Source: an uncultured Thermococci archaeon (GTDB lineage Archaea; Methanobacteriota_B; Thermococci; Thermococcales; Thermococcaceae). Taken from it: a stretch of 15,204 nucleotides of DNA. This document shows, piece after piece, positions 5,652 through 15,204 of this stretch. The notes beneath the pieces are model-generated. The model worked only from the letters and a program-made list of their open reading frames with translations. It was not told the DNA's origin and did no database searches. Both the position numbers and the translations under genes were made by a program. Where the stretch lies: positions 1-15,204 of the forward strand of contig CAZTOS010000056.1 of assembly GCA_964615185.1 (NCBI GenBank), read 5' to 3'. The first letter of the stretch is position 1. Every line of letters starts with the position of its first letter.

Positions 5652-6871
5652 CGCTGATTGTGGGAAAGATTGGAGATAACATAGTAGAGCGTTTTGAGCT
5701 TCCCGGTGTTTTGGGAGAAATTTTAATGGGTATGATTCTGGGAAATTTGATATATTTTGGAATTATCAGTCCTGAATACCTTACCCTACATTCAAATGAA
5801 ACCTTTGAGTTTTTAGCAAAGCTTGGTATAATTTTTCTGCTCTTCTTGGGAGGTCTTGATACTGATATAGAGCTCATAAAGAGAACTGGAAAAGTTGCCA
5901 TAGTCTCCACCCTTATGGGAGTATTCACACCTCTAATAATGGGATATCTTGGGCTTAAGTTAATGGGGTATCCTCCCAGAGAAGCCTTTGCTGGTGGTGT
6001 TCTGCTTACAGCAACGAGTATTGGAATCACGGTTAGAGTTATGATGGATCTGGGAGTTTTGAGGAGTGAGGTAGGAGCAGCTTCGCTGAGTGCGAGTGTA
6101 ATGGATGACTTTCTTGGCATAGCTTTGGTGATTTTTGCTGTTGGAACGGGGAGTATTTTGGGATTAATTGGAAAAATGACGGCCTTCTTCATAATTACTG
6201 GTGTTGTTGCTTGGTATTCTATTGATAAATACATACGCTTTTCTGAACGACTCCATGTGGAGAAGGGAGTTCTAGCTATGGTTCTAGCGTTAATGTTTCT
6301 CTTTTCAGCCCTTGCAGAGAAATGGTTTGCTGCTGCGATTGAAGGTGCATTCATGGCAGGTCTTGTTTTATCAAAGCTTCCAGAAGGCAGAAAAATAGCA
6401 GAAGATGTTAAAGCCATTGGATACGGCTTCCTAATTCCGATATTCTTCGTGTACACTGGAGCGATGCTCGATTTGAAAGTGTTTGCAAGCAGAGAGGCAT
6501 TGGCTTTAGCAGTCGTTCTAACGAGCATTGCGGTTATTGGAAAGGTTGTAGGAAGAGGAATCGGAGCAATGATGATGGGATGGGACTTCAAAAAGTCTCT
6601 TCAAATGGGAATAGGTTCAATTCCAAGAACTGAAGTTGCTCTCGTGGATTTGATGGTTGCAATTCATGGAGGTGCAATACCCCAGAGTGATGCACAAAAG
6701 TTTATAGCCGCAACGCTGATTTTCATCACTGTCTCCGTGCTGATAACTCCTCCACTGTTGAAGTGGGCATTTAAGGAAGATGTCGAAAGGAGGAAGAAAG
6801 AGAAAGCAGAAATTAAGAAAGAGAAAGTTAAAGAGACCAAGAAGAAAATTGCAGAGATTAAGCGGAGCTGA
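5615..6871 (+). CDS. CPA2-family cation:proton antiporter (NapA-like Na+/H+ antiporter)
   Basis: About 12-13 TM segments; 'LPGVLGEILMGMILG', 'TATSIGIT', 'VMDD' di-Asp motif, 'IGKVVG', 'PRTEVAL'; charged C-terminal tail. Confidence 0.9.
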   Translation: MEPEWILFTIGVALIVGKIGDNIVERFELPGVLGEILMGMILGNLIYFGIISPEYLTLHSNETFEFLAKLGIIFLLFLGGLDTDIELIKRTGKVAIVSTLMGVFTPLIMGYLGLKLMGYPPREAFAGGVLLTATSIGITVRVMMDLGVLRSEVGAASLSASVMDDFLGIALVIFAVGTGSILGLIGKMTAFFIITGVVAWYSIDKYIRFSERLHVEKGVLAMVLALMFLFSALAEKWFAAAIEGAFMAGLVLSKLPEGRKIAEDVKAIGYGFLIPIFFVYTGAMLDLKVFASREALALAVVLTSIAVIGKVVGRGIGAMMMGWDFKKSLQMGIGSIPRTEVALVDLMVAIHGGAIPQSDAQKFIAATLIFITVSVLITPPLLKWAFKEDVERRKKEKAEIKKEKVKETKKKIAEIKRS

Positions 6872-7520
6872 GTGATTCCGCAAATTCAATCTCTAAATCA
6901 ACGTCAAGACCTTCAAAAGCCTCTCTTATTTGTTCTTCAAAAACTTCAGCCTCTGGGCTGTCCTTGGGAATATTAAGCATTATCTTAACTTTTCTGCCTT
7001 CAATCTTACATCCCTTATACTTATCCCCTCTAAGAACGCTTTCCCCAGTAAGTGGGTCAATAACTGCCGCAAGAATCAGCTTAACAAAGCTCTCGTCAAT
7101 TTCTCTCCTCCCTTGGATAACATCCCACTTCGCCAAAGCCTGCTTAAGTCCTTCAGCCGCTAATACTGCACAGTGATATTTGATCTGCGGCAATCCTCCA
7201 AGCTCTTCCACAATGTCCTTGAATTTAATTTTCTTGGCTTCTTCGATAGTTTTTCCTTTTATCATTTCTGTGAGCACTGAGGCAGTTGCAATATTCGCGG
7301 CACAACCGTAACTCCTGAATTTAGCGTCAACTATTTTGTCATTCTCAATCTTCAGATAGAGCTTTATCATGTCTCCACATGCTGGACTTCCTGCTTTTGC
7401 CGTGACACTTGGATTTTCTATTTCTCCAACATTTTTTGGATGAAGAAAGTACTGTAAGACCTTCCTCGAATAACCTATCCTCTTTTTCTCGTCCCATTTT
7501 CTGGCATCAAATCTTTCCAT
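6858..7520 (-). CDS. iscU: IscU/NifU-N (MisU-type) Fe-S scaffold fused to a C-terminal DUF59/SufT-like domain
   Basis: 'YS.KVLQYFLHPKNVG', ACGD (C48, D50), YGCA (C73), LPQIKYHC (H116, C117). Extra residues about 141-213 read 'LAAVIDPLTGESV...KVKIMLNIPKDSPEAEVFEEQIREAF'. Confidence 0.9.
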   Translation of the reverse strand: MERFDARKWDEKKRIGYSRKVLQYFLHPKNVGEIENPSVTAKAGSPACGDMIKLYLKIENDKIVDAKFRSYGCAANIATASVLTEMIKGKTIEEAKKIKFKDIVEELGGLPQIKYHCAVLAAEGLKQALAKWDVIQGRREIDESFVKLILAAVIDPLTGESVLRGDKYKGCKIEGRKVKIMLNIPKDSPEAEVFEEQIREAFEGLDVDLEIEFAESLSSA

Positions 7521-7742
7521 TTATCTCACCTTTTTCACGACGATTCTCCAAACACCGTCTTTCTCGTCGATTTCAAGGATTTCTTGACCTGTTTCATCGG
7601 CTGCTAACGCTATTTCACCCTTACTTAACTCATGAGTGCCAACAATCTCAATTATCTCTCCAACTTTGGCTTTTCTCAAAGCCTTCCTGAATTCATTGAG
7701 TGGGATTGGACATTCTTTTCCTATGACATTGATCTTTATCAT
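7521..7742 (-). CDS. tusA: TusA/SirA-family sulfur carrier protein
   Basis: 73 aa with 'INVIGKECPIP' CPxP motif and 'KVGEIIEIV'. The start overlaps the iscS stop (ATGA); the stop abuts the iscU ATG. Confidence 0.85.
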   Translation of the reverse strand: MIKINVIGKECPIPLNEFRKALRKAKVGEIIEIVGTHELSKGEIALAADETGQEILEIDEKDGVWRIVVKKVR

Positions 7743-8887
7743 CCCTTACCACCGTAGATGCTGATTTCCCTTAGTTTTTCAACGACATCCTTTATAATCT
7801 CATACGCCTTTACTATCTCATCCTCAGTTGTCCACTTGCTTAAGCTCAGCCTCACTGAACCGTGAGCATCTTCAAATGAGCCCCCAATGGCTCTAATTAC
7901 ATGACTTGGCAAAAGTTCTTGCGAATAACATGCAGAACCAGTTGAAAACACCAGCCCTCTCAAGTCACAGTGGAGTAAAATGCTTTCTCCTTCAACGTAA
8001 GCGAATGAAACGTTTACATTATTGGGCAACCTTTTATCTCCTCTTGGACCGTTGAGCTTTGTATCGGGGATGCTTAAGAGCAAATCAATTAGCTTATCCC
8101 TGAGCTTTGCCATTCTCTTAGCATCATCGTAGTTTATTAACTCTACAGCTTTTCCAAAGCCAGCTATTGCTGGAACATTGATCATTCCTGGTCTTATTCC
8201 TCTTTCCCTCACATCTCCATCAAGGAGAGGTTTGAGTTTAACCCCATCCCTTATATAAAGTGCGGCAATTCCCTTAGGGCCGTGGATTAAGTGAGCGGTA
8301 ATGCTCATTAAGTCAACATCCAGCTTTTTGACATCTATTTTAACTTTACCAAAGGCATGATTTGCATCCAAATAGAGGAGAGCGCCTTTATCATGAACTA
8401 TCTCAGAGATTGCTTTGATGTCTTGGATAGTTCCAATTTCAAAGTTCCCTAAGTGAGTAGCGAAGAGAATTGTATCTTTCAAATTGCTTTGAAGGTCTTC
8501 AAGGTTTATAAAGCCCTCTCTATCAACATTAACTTCATAAGTGTCAAATCCCCAATCTTCCAGTCTTTTGACTGTGTTAAGAATTGCTTTTCTCTCAATT
8601 TTACTTGTCAAAACTTTTCCTTTCTCTTTAGCCCATGCTGTACCTTTTATCGCCAAATTATCAGCTTCAGTTTCATCAGAGACAAAAATAATCTCGTCTG
8701 GAGACGCATTTATTTCCTTCGCTATCTTTTCTCTCGCCTCTTCTATGGCTTCTCTTGCTTCCTCGTCAAATATATGTCCAAATTCGCCTCCTGGAGTTCC
8801 GTATTTCTCTTCCAGATACTCAAGCATTACCTTAATTACCTCTGGATCGGGCTTAGTGGTGTTTGCATTATCCAAATAAATAACCAT
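7739..8887 (-). CDS. iscS: IscS/NifS-type (class I) cysteine desulfurase homolog lacking PLP-binding residues (probable pseudo-desulfurase)
   Basis: 'IYLDNANTT', 'GPKG', 'RLPNNVNVSF..VEGE', 'STGSAC' (C323), 'PSHVIRAIG', 'GSVRLSL' identify the family. The SAHK motif reads TAHL (L203, TTA at 8290-8288). Probable start ATG8887 after AGGTGA RBS; residue numbers follow the ORF starting at 8896. Confidence 0.9.
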   Translation of the reverse strand: MVIYLDNANTTKPDPEVIKVMLEYLEEKYGTPGGEFGHIFDEEAREAIEEAREKIAKEINASPDEIIFVSDETEADNLAIKGTAWAKEKGKVLTSKIERKAILNTVKRLEDWGFDTYEVNVDREGFINLEDLQSNLKDTILFATHLGNFEIGTIQDIKAISEIVHDKGALLYLDANHAFGKVKIDVKKLDVDLMSITAHLIHGPKGIAALYIRDGVKLKPLLDGDVRERGIRPGMINVPAIAGFGKAVELINYDDAKRMAKLRDKLIDLLLSIPDTKLNGPRGDKRLPNNVNVSFAYVEGESILLHCDLRGLVFSTGSACYSQELLPSHVIRAIGGSFEDAHGSVRLSLSKWTTEDEIVKAYEIIKDVVEKLREISIYGGKG

Positions 8888-8920: not shown

Positions 8921-8928
8921 TTTTTAAG
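8921..8928 (-). promoter_or_regulatory. Probable TATA box (CTTAAAAA) for the iscS-tusA-iscU operon
   Basis: Minus strand CAGCAATA-CTTAAAAA, about 34 nt upstream of ATG8887. Confidence 0.45.
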
Positions 8929-8951
8929 TATTGCTGGACAGAGCTGTGTAA

Positions 8952-9341
8952 CTACCCGAATAAATCTATACATATCCTGCATTCTGCTGGATTTACCTCG
9001 GGATCAATTTTCTCATGGAGAGAGCAGAGATAGCCTTTCCCAAGCATTTTTAGTGCAATTTTAACAAGTTCTGCATGTATTTGGTATTCACTTGGCTTTT
9101 TCCTAATTATCTCCTCTGCAAGCTTTCTGAGATCTGCATCAATATCCGGAAATTTTGAAACTTCTATAAGTGCTCCCCTATTCATTCGCAAATACCTTGA
9201 AACAGCGGATTGAGTAATATGCAGAAGTTCAGCGACTTGAGTTTGGGTCAACTTATGCTCCTTGTAAAGAATTTCAACTAACCGCCTTCTCAATGAAGGA
9301 TAAACATATTTAGCCGCAACCTCAAAGGCATTTATTTTCAT
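8952..9341 (-). CDS. Archaeal HTH transcriptional regulator (COG2522-like) with C-terminal C-x2-H...C-x2-C motif
   Basis: 'YVYPSLRRRLVEIL', HTH 'LTQTQVAELLHITQSAVSRYL', tail 'LCSLH...ECRIC'. Probable leaderless start ATG9341, about 23 nt below a TTATATAT box at 9371-9364. Confidence 0.85.
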   Translation of the reverse strand: MKINAFEVAAKYVYPSLRRRLVEILYKEHKLTQTQVAELLHITQSAVSRYLRMNRGALIEVSKFPDIDADLRKLAEEIIRKKPSEYQIHAELVKIALKMLGKGYLCSLHEKIDPEVNPAECRICIDLFG

Positions 9342-9351
9342 GATTCCTAAT

Positions 9352-9365
9352 ATGACGCGTGGCAT
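9352..9365. promoter_or_regulatory. Putative operator box 1, ATGAC-GCGT-GGCAT
   Basis: Near-palindrome (extends to ATATGAC...GGCATAT, 9350-9367) between the regulator's TATA box and its start codon. Confidence 0.6.
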
Positions 9366-9400
9366 ATATAACCTTTATTGAACAAAAATGTGTAGAAAGG

Positions 9401-9408
9401 TTTAAAAG
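9401..9408 (+). promoter_or_regulatory. BRE/TATA (AGAAAGG-TTTAAAAG) for the DUF438-hemerythrin-PAS gene
   Basis: Canonical Thermococcales promoter about 35 nt upstream of ATG9443. Confidence 0.65.
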
Positions 9409-9416
9409 TGTTAAAT

Positions 9417-9430
9417 ATGACATATGTCAT
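9417..9430. promoter_or_regulatory. Putative operator box 2, perfect palindrome ATGACATATGTCAT
   Basis: 14-bp perfect inverted repeat between the TATA box (9401-9408) and the RBS (GGGTGA, 9433-9438). Confidence 0.7.
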
Positions 9431-9442
9431 GAGGGTGATAAA

Positions 9443-10780
9443 ATGACTGAAATCTTGAAAAATCGTGAGTATAAGAAAGAGAAAATGAAAGAGCTTTTGA
9501 AGAAAATCCACAAAGGAGAAGACGTTGAAAAGCTCAAAGAGGAGTTTAAAGAACTCTTGAGGAGCATCTCTCCGTTAGAAATACCCCTCATTGAGCAAGA
9601 ACTTGTTAAAGAGGGTATTTCTGCAAGAGAAATCGCAAAGATGTGCGACATCCACGTTGAGCTTTTCAGAGAAGCGGTTTCTGAAGCTGAGAAGGAGGAG
9701 CTGAGTGATATTCCTCCGGGTCATCCCCTCCACACACTCTATGAAGAGAACAAGGAAATTATGAAAGATGCAGAGATGCTCAATCTTTACGCTTTAACTT
9801 TAGCCAACACAAAGGATGAAAAGATGAGAAAAGAAATCCTTGGGGTTCTTAAAGGGATAGCTAACCAGCTCAGGGCTGTTGGATTCACTCACTACAACAG
9901 GGAGGAGATGTTGCTCTTTCCTTACCTTGAGAGGAGGGGCATTACAGCCGTCCCAACAGTCCTCTGGACAAAGCATGATGAAATAAGGGCAATGATAAAG
10001 CAGCTAATTGAGATATTAAATAAAGAAAATAAAATGGATTGGGAAGACTTCGTGAAGAAGGTCAAAGAAAAAGCTTCAGAACTTTCAAGAGCTCTAGTTG
10101 ACATGGTATTCAGGGAGAACAACATACTCTATCCAACACTAAAAGCTCTGCTCTCTGAGGGAGAATGGGACGCTATAACACAGCAGGAAGATGCCATAGG
10201 ATACTACAAAGTTAAGCCTGGAAATAAATGGAAGCCAAAAGCTAAGCCCCTTCACCCCTACGAAATTGACACAACCCTAACAGCAGAACAAATCTTAAGT
10301 TTGCCAAAGGAAGTCCAGATGACACTTAAGGGACAGAAGCTTGAGGGAGATAAGACAAAAGTAAAAAGAGAAGGCGACCTGGAGCTTGATATCGGATATC
10401 TCTCGCCAAAAGAAATAGACGCAATATTTAAACACCTTCCCGTTGATATAACATTCATAGACAAAGACGACAGAGTACGGTTTTTCTCTGGTGGAGACAG
10501 AATATTTACGAGGACACCCTCGATAATCGGAAGACCTGTGCAGCTCTGCCATCCACCAAAGAGCGTCCATATAGTTAACAAAATTCTCAAGGCATTTAAA
10601 GAAGGCAGAAAAGATGTTGCGGAATTCTGGATTCAAATGGGCGGAAGGTTTATACACATCCGCTACTTCGCTGTGAGGGACGAGAACGGTGAGTATTTGG
10701 GAACTCTTGAAGTTGTTCAAGATGTTACTGAAATTAGAAAGCTTGAAGGAGAAAAGAGACTTTTGGACTGGAGGAATTGA
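9443..10780 (+). CDS. DUF438 + hemerythrin-like + PAS domain protein (COG2461-like)
   Basis: DUF438 'ISPLEIPLIEQEL...MCDIHVELF'; hemerythrin-like 'GHPLHTLYEEN', 'HYNREEMLLFP', 'WTKHDEIR', 'MVFRENNILYP'; PAS 'LPVDITFIDKDDRVRFFS...IGRPVQLCHPPKS'. Start ATG9443 with GGGTGAT RBS; the ORF track starts at 9359. Confidence 0.9.
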   Translation: MTEILKNREYKKEKMKELLKKIHKGEDVEKLKEEFKELLRSISPLEIPLIEQELVKEGISAREIAKMCDIHVELFREAVSEAEKEELSDIPPGHPLHTLYEENKEIMKDAEMLNLYALTLANTKDEKMRKEILGVLKGIANQLRAVGFTHYNREEMLLFPYLERRGITAVPTVLWTKHDEIRAMIKQLIEILNKENKMDWEDFVKKVKEKASELSRALVDMVFRENNILYPTLKALLSEGEWDAITQQEDAIGYYKVKPGNKWKPKAKPLHPYEIDTTLTAEQILSLPKEVQMTLKGQKLEGDKTKVKREGDLELDIGYLSPKEIDAIFKHLPVDITFIDKDDRVRFFSGGDRIFTRTPSIIGRPVQLCHPPKSVHIVNKILKAFKEGRKDVAEFWIQMGGRFIHIRYFAVRDENGEYLGTLEVVQDVTEIRKLEGEKRLLDWRN

Positions 10781-12907: not shown

Positions 12908-13543
12908 TCATGAAGAATTTCCTTCCTTCTTTCCGGTTTTTGCAGGCTTGGGCTTGGCAGCAGCTGGTGGTCTAAGTCCATAGCCGAGGATCTTAAACTT
13001 GAACACCTCCCCATCCCTGAAATAGTATGTTACCTCTTTTGTCTCCTTGTTGAACTCAATCTTTACAACCGGGAATCTGTAATCTGGGAATTTCTCATTG
13101 ATTTCCTTGATTTTGTCTGGATGAATTGGAACCCAGTCAAAGAGCTCAATCTCCTCATCTTTCCACTCAGTTGTGAGCATGAAGTTCTCAACAAATCCAA
13201 GTGCACCAGTTGGACACACATCCACACAGAACTGGCAGAATGTACATCTGCCATAGTCAATCTTCGGATGCGGTCTCTTTTCGACTTTGCCGTCAACTTC
13301 AATCCACGTCATCTCAATTGCCCTCGCCGGACATATCTGGCCGCAGAAGTTACAGCCAATGCATTTTTTCCAGTCAAGTGAATGGAATCCCCTGTATTTT
13401 TCAGCGATTTGAGTTTTTTCGTAGGGTATTTTGATTGTTACGGGCTTTTTGAAGAGGTACTTTAACCCAAGCCAAGGTTTAATGTATGAGGGTTTTTTCT
13501 TGATTTTGCTCTCGGGTGCAACCTTAAAATCAATCTCCTCCAT
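12908..13543 (-). CDS. mbxN: Membrane-bound sulfane reductase (MBS/MBX) subunit N, NuoI-like 2x[4Fe-4S]
   Basis: CIGCNFCGQICP and CTFCQFCVDVCP; 'KKPVTIKIPYE', 'KYRGFH'. Follows mbxL. Probable start ATG13543 after AGGTGA RBS. Confidence 0.92.
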   Translation of the reverse strand: MEEIDFKVAPESKIKKKPSYIKPWLGLKYLFKKPVTIKIPYEKTQIAEKYRGFHSLDWKKCIGCNFCGQICPARAIEMTWIEVDGKVEKRPHPKIDYGRCTFCQFCVDVCPTGALGFVENFMLTTEWKDEEIELFDWVPIHPDKIKEINEKFPDYRFPVVKIEFNKETKEVTYYFRDGEVFKFKILGYGLRPPAAAKPKPAKTGKKEGNSS

Positions 13544-13548
13544 TTCCA

Positions 13549-14724
13549 TCACCTGTCAATGTCGGGCGGGCAGTTATCAAGACTCATTAATATGACTGGA
13601 ACATCAGCTATCCTCGCTCCAACTAACAGCTGCTCAAGGACTCTGATACCATGTGCGATGCTTGGCCCTCTTATCTGCACCCTATAAGGCTTGTTCCCAC
13701 CATCGCTGACTACATAGGCACCAAAGTCTCCTTTCGTGCTTTCAACGTGAGCAAATGCATCTCCAGCTGGAACCTTGAACCTCGGCAAGTTCTTCAGCCT
13801 TGGATCTTGGACTTTGTATGGTCCACTTGGTGGTCTCATTTCAAGGAGCTGCTCCAGTATATATAAGTCCTGCTCAAGCTCGTATCTTCTAATTAATGCC
13901 CTTGCCAGTGCATCCCCCTCTTTTAACACTGGAACCTCAAAGTCAAGCTCTGGGTAAAGCAGATATGGATCCATCCTCCTTACATCATATGGAACGCCCG
14001 TTGCCCTTAAGTTTGGCCCAGTCACTCCCTCAGCCAGCGCAAACTTCTTATCCATAACACCAATTCCTTCCATTCTCTTGAATGTTATGTAGTTCTCGAA
14101 AACGAGGTGATCAAAGTCGGGGAGTTTGCTCTTTATGTATTCAACCGTATCCTTCAGCTGACGGAGCCACTTATCCCCAGGAATGTCTCTTCTAACTCCG
14201 CCAATTTTTGTGTAAATGTGATAAACACTTGCCCCAGTTAGCTCCTCAAAGAGCGCCATGAGCCTTTCTCTGTAAGCTGCAGCCCACTGACCAGCAGTAT
14301 AAACACCAAGCTTGAAGCTGAGACCCATTATCCAGAATAAGTATGCAGAAACCCTTGCCATCTCCAAGACTGTCGTTCTAATCCACTGTGCCCTCTCCGG
14401 AACCTCCCAGCCCATCAATTCATCAACAGCCATTGAGTAAATTGCCTCTGGAACATCTGGTTCTGGGACACAAATTCTTAAGAGCAGGGCGATGTTTGTG
14501 TACCAGGGTCTGAGTTCAGCTAACTTTTCAAATCCTCTGTGCAAAAATCCAGGATTTGCTATGGCTTTAACAACCCTATGACCGTCCATTTTGAGGATTA
14601 TGCTGAAGTTTTCAGTGGCCATGTGCTGAGGACCGAAGAACAACTCATAAGTATCTTTGTCGAGGGGTAAAAGCTCCATGCCATTTTCTCTCGCTTCTTT
14701 AATAAGTTCGCTTTGTGAAACCAT
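13549..14724 (-). CDS. mbxL: Membrane-bound sulfane reductase (MBS/MBX) catalytic subunit L, NuoD-like
   Basis: 'FGPQH', 'GFLHRGFEK', 'RICVPE' (C85) and C-terminal 'DNCPPDIDR' (C385), numbered from ATG14724. Only two of the four NiFe-hydrogenase Cys are present, the MbsL signature. Confidence 0.93.
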   Translation of the reverse strand: MVSQSELIKEARENGMELLPLDKDTYELFFGPQHMATENFSIILKMDGHRVVKAIANPGFLHRGFEKLAELRPWYTNIALLLRICVPEPDVPEAIYSMAVDELMGWEVPERAQWIRTTVLEMARVSAYLFWIMGLSFKLGVYTAGQWAAAYRERLMALFEELTGASVYHIYTKIGGVRRDIPGDKWLRQLKDTVEYIKSKLPDFDHLVFENYITFKRMEGIGVMDKKFALAEGVTGPNLRATGVPYDVRRMDPYLLYPELDFEVPVLKEGDALARALIRRYELEQDLYILEQLLEMRPPSGPYKVQDPRLKNLPRFKVPAGDAFAHVESTKGDFGAYVVSDGGNKPYRVQIRGPSIAHGIRVLEQLLVGARIADVPVILMSLDNCPPDIDR

Positions 14725-14734
14725 TTCTCTCACC

Positions 14735-15204
14735 TCAAATCACGTAATTGTCTTTGTTCTCATCAAATCTGTCCAAAATCTTGTATTTCTTTTTGACATA
14801 GCTCAGCATGTCAAAGTCCTTTCTGTGTGGGAACAGTCCTTGCTCTGCATCATCAAGAATCCAAGGCATCTCCATCTTCTCATTACCCTCAAAGTAAACT
14901 CCATAGAAGTCATGAGCGTCTCTCTCATAGGTTTCTGCAACTGGGTAAATATCCTTGACTGTTGGCATCCTTGCCTTATCTAACTCCCTTGGAATCCTCA
15001 TCTTAACCATTGCATGAGTTCTGTGGGTTATGCTCCACATCTGGTAAACCAGCTCATATTCCCCTTCTTTTAGCCAGTCAACCACCGTTATCTGAAGCAT
15101 GAGCTCAAAGTTGTTTTCTTTTAGTAGGGTCAAAAAATCTCTTATCCTGTCTGCCGGTACTTTGAACTCAATTCTCCGCTCTCTTCTAACCCTTCCCTCA
15201 GCAT
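14735..15204 (-). CDS. mbxK: Membrane-bound sulfane reductase (MBS/MBX) subunit K, NuoC-like; 5' end outside the window
   Basis: 'ITVVDW', 'YPVAETYERDAHDFYGVYFEGN', 'FPHRKDF'. The frame stays open to the window edge (AEGRVRRERRIEFKVPADRIRDFL). Confidence 0.9.
   Translation of the reverse strand, partial: AEGRVRRERRIEFKVPADRIRDFLTLLKENNFELMLQITVVDWLKEGEYELVYQMWSITHRTHAMVKMRIPRELDKARMPTVKDIYPVAETYERDAHDFYGVYFEGNEKMEMPWILDDAEQGLFPHRKDFDMLSYVKKKYKILDRFDENKDNYVI

Follow-up and report, generated by a model that had tools for sequence, protein, structure and literature searches.

In the cysteine desulfurase IscS of Escherichia coli, His104, Asp180, Gln183, Lys206 and Cys328 are indispensable, an R354K variant is fully active, and a K206A variant retains the bands of pyridoxal 5'-phosphate (PLP) (Pang 2023). 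Inactive relatives are known: the IscS of Archaeoglobus fulgidus is reported to be inactive, to lend its Cys as a cluster ligand and to hold pyridoxamine phosphate (PMP) (PMC8918507, bioRxiv 2024.03.20.586028), and a member from Methanosarcina acetivorans was noticed in 2020. The isc1 cluster of this archaeon encodes IscU1 (MA0807), IscS1 (MA0808), a DsrE-family protein (MA0809) and a SirA-like protein (MA0810); the cluster was never characterised, its product having formed inclusion bodies (Deere 2020, PMC7585200). Here we describe P0001, a Lys-less protein of the IscS fold that is predicted from its sequence not to be an active cysteine desulfurase. It is encoded together with a TusA-family sulfur carrier and a long IscU in the window, a stretch of 15,204 nucleotides (nt) from an uncultured Thermococci archaeon (positions 1–15,204 of contig CAZTOS010000056.1, assembly GCA_964615185.1). 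The host genome (Thermococcaceae, 2.26 Mb, 95.6% complete) has named records 94–96% identical among Thermococcus metagenome-assembled genomes, T. paralvinellae among them. The main features are listed below; residues of P0001 were matched by alignment and are numbered from the ATG at 8887, three less than in a first-pass annotation of the window.

7739–8887, minus strand: gene of P0001, a Lys-less IscS-fold pseudo-enzyme of 382 amino acids (aa), from alignment, fold match and the ratio of nonsynonymous to synonymous substitution rates (dN/dS)
8288–8290, minus strand: Leu200 (TTA) where E. coli has the Schiff-base Lys206; the A. fulgidus equivalent is Asp199
8591–8593, minus strand: Arg99 (AGA) where E. 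coli has the ring-stacking His104
8672–8677, minus strand: Asp71-Glu72, where the phosphate-binding helix begins; E. coli has Gly74-Ala75
8357–8359, minus strand: His177 in place of E. coli Gln183
8441–8443, minus strand: Phe149 in place of E. coli Asn155
8183–8185, minus strand: Met235 in place of E. coli Thr243
7928–7930, minus strand: Cys320 of the mobile loop, equivalent to E. coli Cys328 and to the A. fulgidus cluster ligand
7850–7852, minus strand: Arg346, equivalent to E. coli Arg354, kept
8732–8752, minus strand: Glu46, Glu49 and Arg52, equivalent to the TusA-binding Glu49, Asp52 and Arg55 of E. coli IscS (Shi 2010)
7521–7742, minus strand: TusA-family sulfur carrier, 73 aa, with Cys11 in a CPxP motif (C11-P-I-P); PF01206, 64.8 bits against a cut-off of 28.6
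6858–7520, minus strand: long IscU, 220 aa, a scaffold domain followed by a C-terminal DUF59/FeS_assembly_P-like domain, from profile searches

The closest published case is the isc1 cluster of M. acetivorans. Both systems have lost the Lys and the His of IscS, and both have an EFG[YH] motif, a loop Cys within GSAC[FY]S, the conserved Arg, an IscU of 24 kDa with matching ligands and a tail of one kind, and a TusA-family neighbour. They differ in the replacing residues, Lys to Thr and His to Asp in M. acetivorans but Lys to Leu and His to Arg here, in gene order, and in the DsrE protein, which is present there and was not found in the host genome. The IscS2–IscU pair of A. fulgidus (PDB 4EB5, 4EB7, 4HVK, 4R5F) likewise combines a missing Schiff-base Lys with a loop Cys and an IscU partner, and its IscS matches the fold of P0001 with a Z score of 48.9 and a root-mean-square deviation (rmsd) of 1.6 Å. 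However, it has Asp rather than Leu at the Lys position and keeps TSGATE, the His and NNE, where P0001 has VSDETE, IERK and NFE; its IscU has another tail, and its proxies lie elsewhere in the tree described below.

With the active enzymes IscS, NifS and MisS, P0001 shares the fold, by homology a dimer-type architecture, the loop Cys and the equivalents of Asp180 and Arg354, but the catalytic Lys, His and Gln are absent. The minimal IscSU system (MIS) also places an IscS homolog beside an IscU with intact ligands and without chaperones, although MIS, as described in PMC13066941, has a working desulfurase and neither TusA nor a DUF59-like tail. The E. coli IscS–TusA relay (PDB 3LVJ) and the DsrE–TusA relays of sulfur oxidisers use a CPxP carrier, and the central charges of the present pair match the E. 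coli interface. In E. coli, however, IscS is the source of sulfur and tusA lies outside the isc operon (Deere 2020, Fig. S1). Since P0001 could not be the source, the flow of sulfur at this locus would have to start elsewhere. The first-pass annotation had drawn attention to the altered IscS, and overlooked tusA, the DUF59-like tail of IscU and the closer precedent of M. acetivorans IscS1.

Sequence and fold of P0001

The reading frame of P0001 is open from ATG 8887 to TGA 7739–7741 on the minus strand, and every change listed in the first-pass annotation, including T31 in YGTPGG, was found at its codon. The alignment to E. coli and A. fulgidus IscS which it proposed placed L200 on Lys206/Asp199 and R99 on His104. 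P0001 is assigned to fold-type I, class V, with a long Cys loop (PF00266, 210 bits), and scores below all NCBIfam desulfurase cut-offs (TIGR03402, 399 versus 531; TIGR02006, 347 versus 643; NF002806, 248 versus 304). Its predicted structure (pLDDT 87.9) matches IscS and NFS1 structures over about 370 residues with Z scores of about 49–50 and rmsd values of 1.6–1.9 Å (Foldseek, VIA). Since the model is a monomer, the low-confidence residues 30–39, 223–235 and 321–324 were not used as evidence.

For comparison, 131 Lys-bearing representatives of the IscS family served as the reference set of normal enzymes, and conservation among close homologs was counted in the best 120 of 544 passing matches. 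The positions lost in P0001 are 95–100% conserved in the reference set (Lys 131/131, His 131/131, Gln 126, Asn 124, Thr 127), and their joint change goes beyond chance. None of the close homologs has Lys at the Schiff-base position; 119 have Leu, which is maintained through TTA, TTG and CTA codons across the orthologs, and one has Met. The loop Cys is kept in all 120, as it is in 120/120 members of a branch resembling M. acetivorans IscS1. These data support the earlier proposal that P0001, with its catalytic residues absent, is predicted to be inactive as a desulfurase.

Other parts of the proposed dismantling of the PLP site stood in part. Many residues are indeed lost, yet T73 (E. coli Thr76), D174 (Asp180), T197 (Ser203) and H199 (His205) remain. 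In the RPGM motif the change of Thr to Met counts as a loss, whereas the Pro is ordinary, occurring in 26 of the 131 normal enzymes. The Gln-to-His change in DANH is present in the window but not fixed, since two of 11 orthologs have Gln. The acids that were numbered D74/E75 (here D71/E72) stand at positions where no enzyme of the reference set has any acid (0/131), but both occur together in just 13 of the 120 homologs. Because the equivalent of His104 is retained in 86 of the 120, the change to Arg99 is specific to a sub-branch. In the same number, 86/120, only Lys and Asn155 are lost, whereas His, Asp, Gln, Gly and Thr/Ser are all still there, so that pocket erosion in this clade is stepwise. 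For this reason, and because both acids are so rare, the sub-branch of P0001 may plausibly have lost the cofactor, but not the clade as a whole. Rescue by K205 (K208 of the first-pass annotation) was considered and judged unlikely: this Lys occurs alongside the true Lys in 124/131 normal enzymes and also in the inactive A. fulgidus protein. Of the PDB 9WER series, considered as a possible precedent, the aligned entry 9WER carries the normal His and Lys, and no paper on the series was found.

Partners, constraint and expression

The genes follow one another on the minus strand in the order HTH, iscS-like, tusA and long iscU. The first 4 nt of tusA are shared with the end of iscS, and iscU begins directly after the tusA stop. 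The TusA scores far below the TusA, YedF and YeeD equivalog cut-offs, and it is the only TusA found in the host genome. In the long IscU, Tyr17, Cys48, Asp50, Cys73, LPQIK (110–114), His116 and Cys117 are intact, and the ligands are almost invariant among homologs. The tail scores 20.1 bits here against the 23.5-bit cut-off of FeS_assembly_P/DUF59, and lies above the cut-off in 7/7 long IscU homologs scanned. No hscAB, fdx or iscA genes accompany the pair.

In E. coli, IscS Glu49 and Asp52 are required for TusA binding and form salt bridges to TusA Arg27 and Arg31 (Shi 2010, PMC2854127), the IscS loop Cys lies 4 Å from TusA Cys19, and TusA competes with IscU for binding to IscS (PMC11302665). 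These central charges are matched on both sides of the present pair (TusA R19/R23, P0001 E46/E49), and the acidic pair E46/E49 occurs in 27/28 clade members versus 37/131 Lys-bearing representatives.

Pairwise dN/dS (Nei–Gojobori) of the iscS-like gene against 10 orthologs was 0.04–0.15, with dS almost saturated in the three most divergent pairs. All 11 full orthologs are open frames of 382 codons, and the same motifs occur in 12 proteins with 83–100% identity. The tusA and iscU genes are constrained as much as or more than the iscS-like gene (tusA dN/dS 0–0.03 where dS is unsaturated), and purifying selection thus acts on the whole set of three. These results bear out the first-pass annotation's dismissal of a sequencing error and rule against the decaying gene that it had named as a refutation.

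The ortholog in Palaeococcus pacificus, PAP_08965 (P0010, 87% identity), is annotated as 'cysteine desulfurase (iscS)' in a transcriptome paper (PMC6981617), the very miscall that had been foreseen. Its expression there was 6017 reads per kilobase per million (RPKM) with elemental sulfur (S0) and 6692 without, compared with 2080/2938 for sufS, 866/1274 for sufB and 308/586 for sufC; the printed log2 values of iscS and sufS appear swapped, and sodium sulfide served as the reductant in either medium (PMC6981617). Contigs assembled from RNA runs of a relative (about 92% alike) span the operon, and such contigs can show neither transcription nor a single transcript. Two further features lie upstream of the iscS-like gene:

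8921–8937, minus strand: TFB-recognition-element (BRE)/TATA-like element, upstream of 11/11 orthologs, two of which lack the HTH gene
8952–9338, minus strand: helix-turn-helix protein (HTH_3), a possible regulator, in 9/12 Thermococcales loci

The element is the probable own promoter of iscS-tusA-iscU, and the HTH gene is loosely attached (not found in L036 and L037; L038 ends early).

Several differences in the surroundings were seen. At 6858–6873, where relatives have a small thioredoxin-like (CPYC) gene right after iscU, the window has none, and its IscU is four residues longer than theirs, overlapping the end of an antiporter gene. In four relatives (L191–L194) a redox-stress island, corresponding to 9359–10780 of the window, is read away from the operon on the opposite side, with genes for a hybrid cluster (prismane) protein, a TusA/DUF2249-DUF1858 protein (3/4), a flavodiiron-like protein (2/4) and a DUF438-hemerythrin-PAS protein. 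The window retains only the DUF438 gene, and contigs of a relative add 1719 letters at 9371–9382. This island and the gcvP neighbourhoods were considered as parts of the system and judged to be insertion sites.

Elsewhere in the clade, OsmC-like and adenine deaminase genes (31/80 metagenome loci each) recur in one sub-branch only. A single run at L135:69-4964 comprises cysK, a short nifU, a cysE-like gene, a Lys-less iscS, ferritin, long iscU and tusA. At L120:5992-12344 a Lys-less iscS-iscU-tusA precedes genes for SepCysS-like, same-family HTH and ThiI proteins, and this neighbourhood may be connected with the sulfur chemistry of tRNA. In the outer parts of the window, a TnpB-family gene (235–1509, NF040570 above cut-off) follows a small open reading frame (ORF) within 2–1509, and 12908–15133 holds, judged from translations only, the end of an operon resembling a membrane-bound hydrogenase or a sulfane reductase, with ferredoxin-type and catalytic-subunit-like ORFs.

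Distribution and descent of Lys-less IscS

Across 99 genomes of the order Thermococcales, an ortholog of the iscS-like gene was found in 12, including all eight of its own genus, and in each of the 12 tusA and iscU lie directly behind it, tusA between the two. A SufS-type gene with intact His, Gln and Lys is present in 12/12 carriers (one is cut by a contig end), the check for an active desulfurase having covered Thermococcales alone; the host genome also encodes a SufB-core gene. IscU was found in 14 of the 99 genomes, the 12 carriers and two of another family. These two (L195:4167-4781, L196:5444-6058, L200:5024-6184) have a long IscU standing by itself and, elsewhere, a divergent Lys-bearing IscS beside glycine-cleavage P genes. 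The wider metagenome sample consisted of the best 80 of at least 227 confirmed loci, 64 of them with at least 1 kb downstream; of these 64, 63 have a long IscU no more than 700 nt downstream. A class-wide search aimed at Methanosarcinales but centred on G099 matched 47/151 and all 30 loci read carry Lys, but it drew on kin with small genomes (0.4–1.3 Mb) and is uninformative on the Lys-less clade.

Among the best 150 representatives at 50% identity, 18 lack the Lys and all 18 keep the Cys; judged from these sequences, loss of the Lys is recurrent in the IscS family. Phylogenetic trees were built from 52 hand-picked rows, using LG+G4 with all columns or a mixture model without 71 motif columns. 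The group with Leu that includes P0001 has a support of 100/99 with all columns and 100/98 without the motif columns, and is on this evidence a firm clade. A sister-like branch, in which Lys is replaced by Thr and His by Asp, agrees motif by motif with M. acetivorans IscS1; Lys is found in 0/120 of its members and Cys in 120/120, and its named matches are anaerobic Clostridia-like bacteria. The two branches are joined with a support of 100/99 with all columns, and in 18% of bootstrap trees without the 71 motif columns, where the starred branches do not reject the joining; P0132 and other proxies stood for MA0808 in the tree. Because of the shared gene content, a common origin of the Thermococcales and M. 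acetivorans forms is likely, though not firm.

The first-pass annotation regarded P0001 as degenerated further from the state of the A. fulgidus protein. This is not supported by the trees, in which A. fulgidus-like proxies chosen by motif (P0171, P0154, P0218) lie elsewhere and joining them to the P0001 group is rejected (p=0.002) by the approximately unbiased (AU) test, the proxies standing for the A. fulgidus sequence and the group being named after earlier trees. The A. fulgidus IscS looks like a separate loss of the Lys.

Further cases were met in the same comparison. Dehalococcoidales loci (L020:9082-11621, L023:8469-11015, L024:1637-2821) carry a normal IscS and, nearby, a Lys-less IscS (AGSQFY/AGNQFY), IscU and TusA; these Lys-less copies are placed elsewhere in the tree, as a separate loss. 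P0153, an ISC-like IscS with Met and Gln at the places of Lys and His, is another. P0121, in the wider Lys-less group, has a Lys and no His. One clade member (L118:1334-2530) has GSASYN and lacks the loop Cys, which may be an error in this single contig.

A literature search that took in few subscription journals or preprint supplements turned up no description of the clade, of its link to TusA or of its form in Thermococcales; the family is not described in the accessible parts of PMC13066941 and PMC10500019.

Source of the sulfur

We propose, at about even odds, that P0001 is a non-catalytic adaptor of the IscS fold, whose Cys receives sulfur from TusA and delivers it to IscU. Judged from the residues lost, P0001 would be unable to form the Lys-PLP aldimine or to perform His-assisted chemistry, and would therefore make no persulfide from cysteine. 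By homology and gene order, a P0001 dimer may dock the long IscU and TusA at the usual IscS surfaces. The flow of sulfur would then be reversed relative to E. coli, from a persulfide on TusA Cys11 to the mobile Cys320 and on to the cluster site of IscU; Cys320 may also ligate the nascent [2Fe-2S] cluster, as in A. fulgidus. The least certain step is the loading of TusA, for which polysulfide or sulfane sulfur of the cell, or the intact SufS of the genome, could serve. The DUF59-like tail would help to hand on or repair clusters, and the cassette would serve constitutively alongside SmsBC/SufS as an accessory route. An inactive enzyme that still has its mobile Cys, a scaffold and a carrier of sulfur would need sulfur from outside. 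A reversed relay is favoured because E46/E49 and R19/R23 match and because bacterial TusAs accept such sulfur: polysulfide persulfurates their CPxP Cys, and TusA can also receive sulfur from DsrE3 proteins (bioRxiv 2023.12.18.572138). Also in favour of the adaptor are the loop Cys kept by all homologs counted while the pocket erodes, the selection on the three genes, the place of tusA between the other two in 12/12 carriers, the SirA-like and DsrE genes flanking M. acetivorans iscS1 (Deere 2020), the occurrence of IscU in the 12 carriers and just two further genomes of the order, the intact SufS-type gene of 12/12 carriers and the transcription of PAP_08965 above sufS, sufB and sufC. More tentatively, and with rather less than even confidence, we suggest that IscS pseudo-enzymes form an old lineage, widespread among anaerobic archaea and Clostridia-like bacteria, which would build Fe-S clusters independently of cysteine, from sulfane sulfur through TusA and the loop Cys to IscU-DUF59, with the Thermococcales form as a cofactor-free end state bearing acids in the phosphate site.

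A number of observations weigh against the adaptor proposal. The cassette is missing from 87 of the 99 Thermococcales genomes, TusA lies within 1.5 kb in only 8/64 metagenome loci of the clade, and the conservation counts come from kin, so that their independence is overstated. The interface is matched in part: the second acid (E49) occurs in 24/120 of the M. acetivorans-like branch, Trp45 of E. coli IscS is replaced by Glu42, and the Arg220–Glu21 bridge is gone on both partners (D214, I13). As for the donor, DsrE (PF02635) was not matched in the 95.6% complete host genome, the operon has no gene for an electron donor, and an archaeal TusA (M. cuprina) took no sulfane sulfur from polysulfide (bioRxiv 2023.12.18.572138). 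Elemental sulfur does not induce PAP_08965 (PMC6981617), and 10/11 orthologs have no SurR-type site within 900 nt upstream. Finally, Thermococcus kodakarensis has an S0-dependent route with only a SufS-type desulfurase (PMC12442378); since it manages with this enzyme alone, the cassette is not needed for the S0 route and would be accessory.

The main rival, a close one though less probable, is that P0001 carries no sulfur at all: free sulfide and iron would assemble on IscU, P0001 would stabilise IscU and lend Cys320 as a ligand, and TusA would be a competitor, a regulator or a sulfide buffer. The cluster-bound complex of A. fulgidus IscS led to the proposal of such a role for that protein (PMC8918507, bioRxiv 2024.03.20.586028), and it is consistent with the direct supply of IscU by H2S in E. 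coli without IscS (PMC13015791), with the competition of E. coli TusA and IscU on IscS (PMC11302665), with constitutive expression of the P. pacificus gene in sulfide-reduced media (PMC6981617) and with the long IscU (63/64), not TusA (8/64), being the constant partner. However, it leaves unexplained the tightly linked, highly conserved tusA of 12/12 carriers and the TusA plus DsrE of M. acetivorans isc1, and A. fulgidus iscS2U2 is reported to have failed to rescue E. coli lacking ISC and SUF, even when Na2S was supplied, a result tempered by the failure of the ordinary iscSU of M. thermoacetophila as well. Improbable in our view is an outward flow, in which sulfur from IscU clusters or sulfide would load TusA for thio-cofactors (Mo/W-pterin, tRNA thiolation), or damaged clusters would be recycled under redox stress. 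The E. coli direction from IscS to TusA (PMC11302665, PMC2854127), the ThiI-like and SepCysS-like genes near the L120 operon and the hybrid cluster (prismane) island facing the operon of four relatives, with its flavodiiron-like gene in two, point that way; but turning sulfide into persulfide would need an oxidant not encoded at the locus, the island is absent around the carriers L059 and L133 and partly lost in the window, and most loci are without TusA.

Very improbable is that P0001 still binds a B6 cofactor non-covalently for other or residual chemistry. The remaining T73, D174, T197, H199 and R346, the PMP held by A. fulgidus IscS and the PLP bands of E. coli K206A would fit such binding, as would the 86/120 homologs that keep all scored contacts but Lys (and Asn155) and the Lys of P0121. 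Against this, the sub-branch of P0001 has replaced His, Gln, Asn, Thr and Gly-Ala and placed two acids at the phosphate helix, and across the clade the His position varies freely among R, Q, E and K; such freely varying pocket positions fit lost constraint rather than a new active site. For a sequencing error or a decaying pseudogene the sole hint of dispensability is the patchy distribution (12/99 genomes), and its probability is negligible given the 11/11 open full-length orthologs, their dN/dS of 0.04–0.15, the motifs common to 12 proteins and the high transcription of an ortholog.

If the adaptor proposal holds, it would bear on two matters in the literature: how the A. fulgidus IscS–IscU pair builds clusters without releasing sulfur, stated to be open (Fujishiro 2022), and why M. 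acetivorans grows on sulfide without SufBC or IscSU2 (PMC10500019). The locus supplies a named candidate donor, TusA, of sulfur to an inactive IscS–IscU, and a thermostable set of three proteins from cultured organisms makes the question of the donor testable in vitro. Many members of the family carry the database label 'cysteine desulfurase', and so large a misannotated family inflates the predicted use of cysteine in archaeal genomes. As read from its genes, the cassette suggests that in these organisms Fe-S clusters may be built from externally supplied sulfur.

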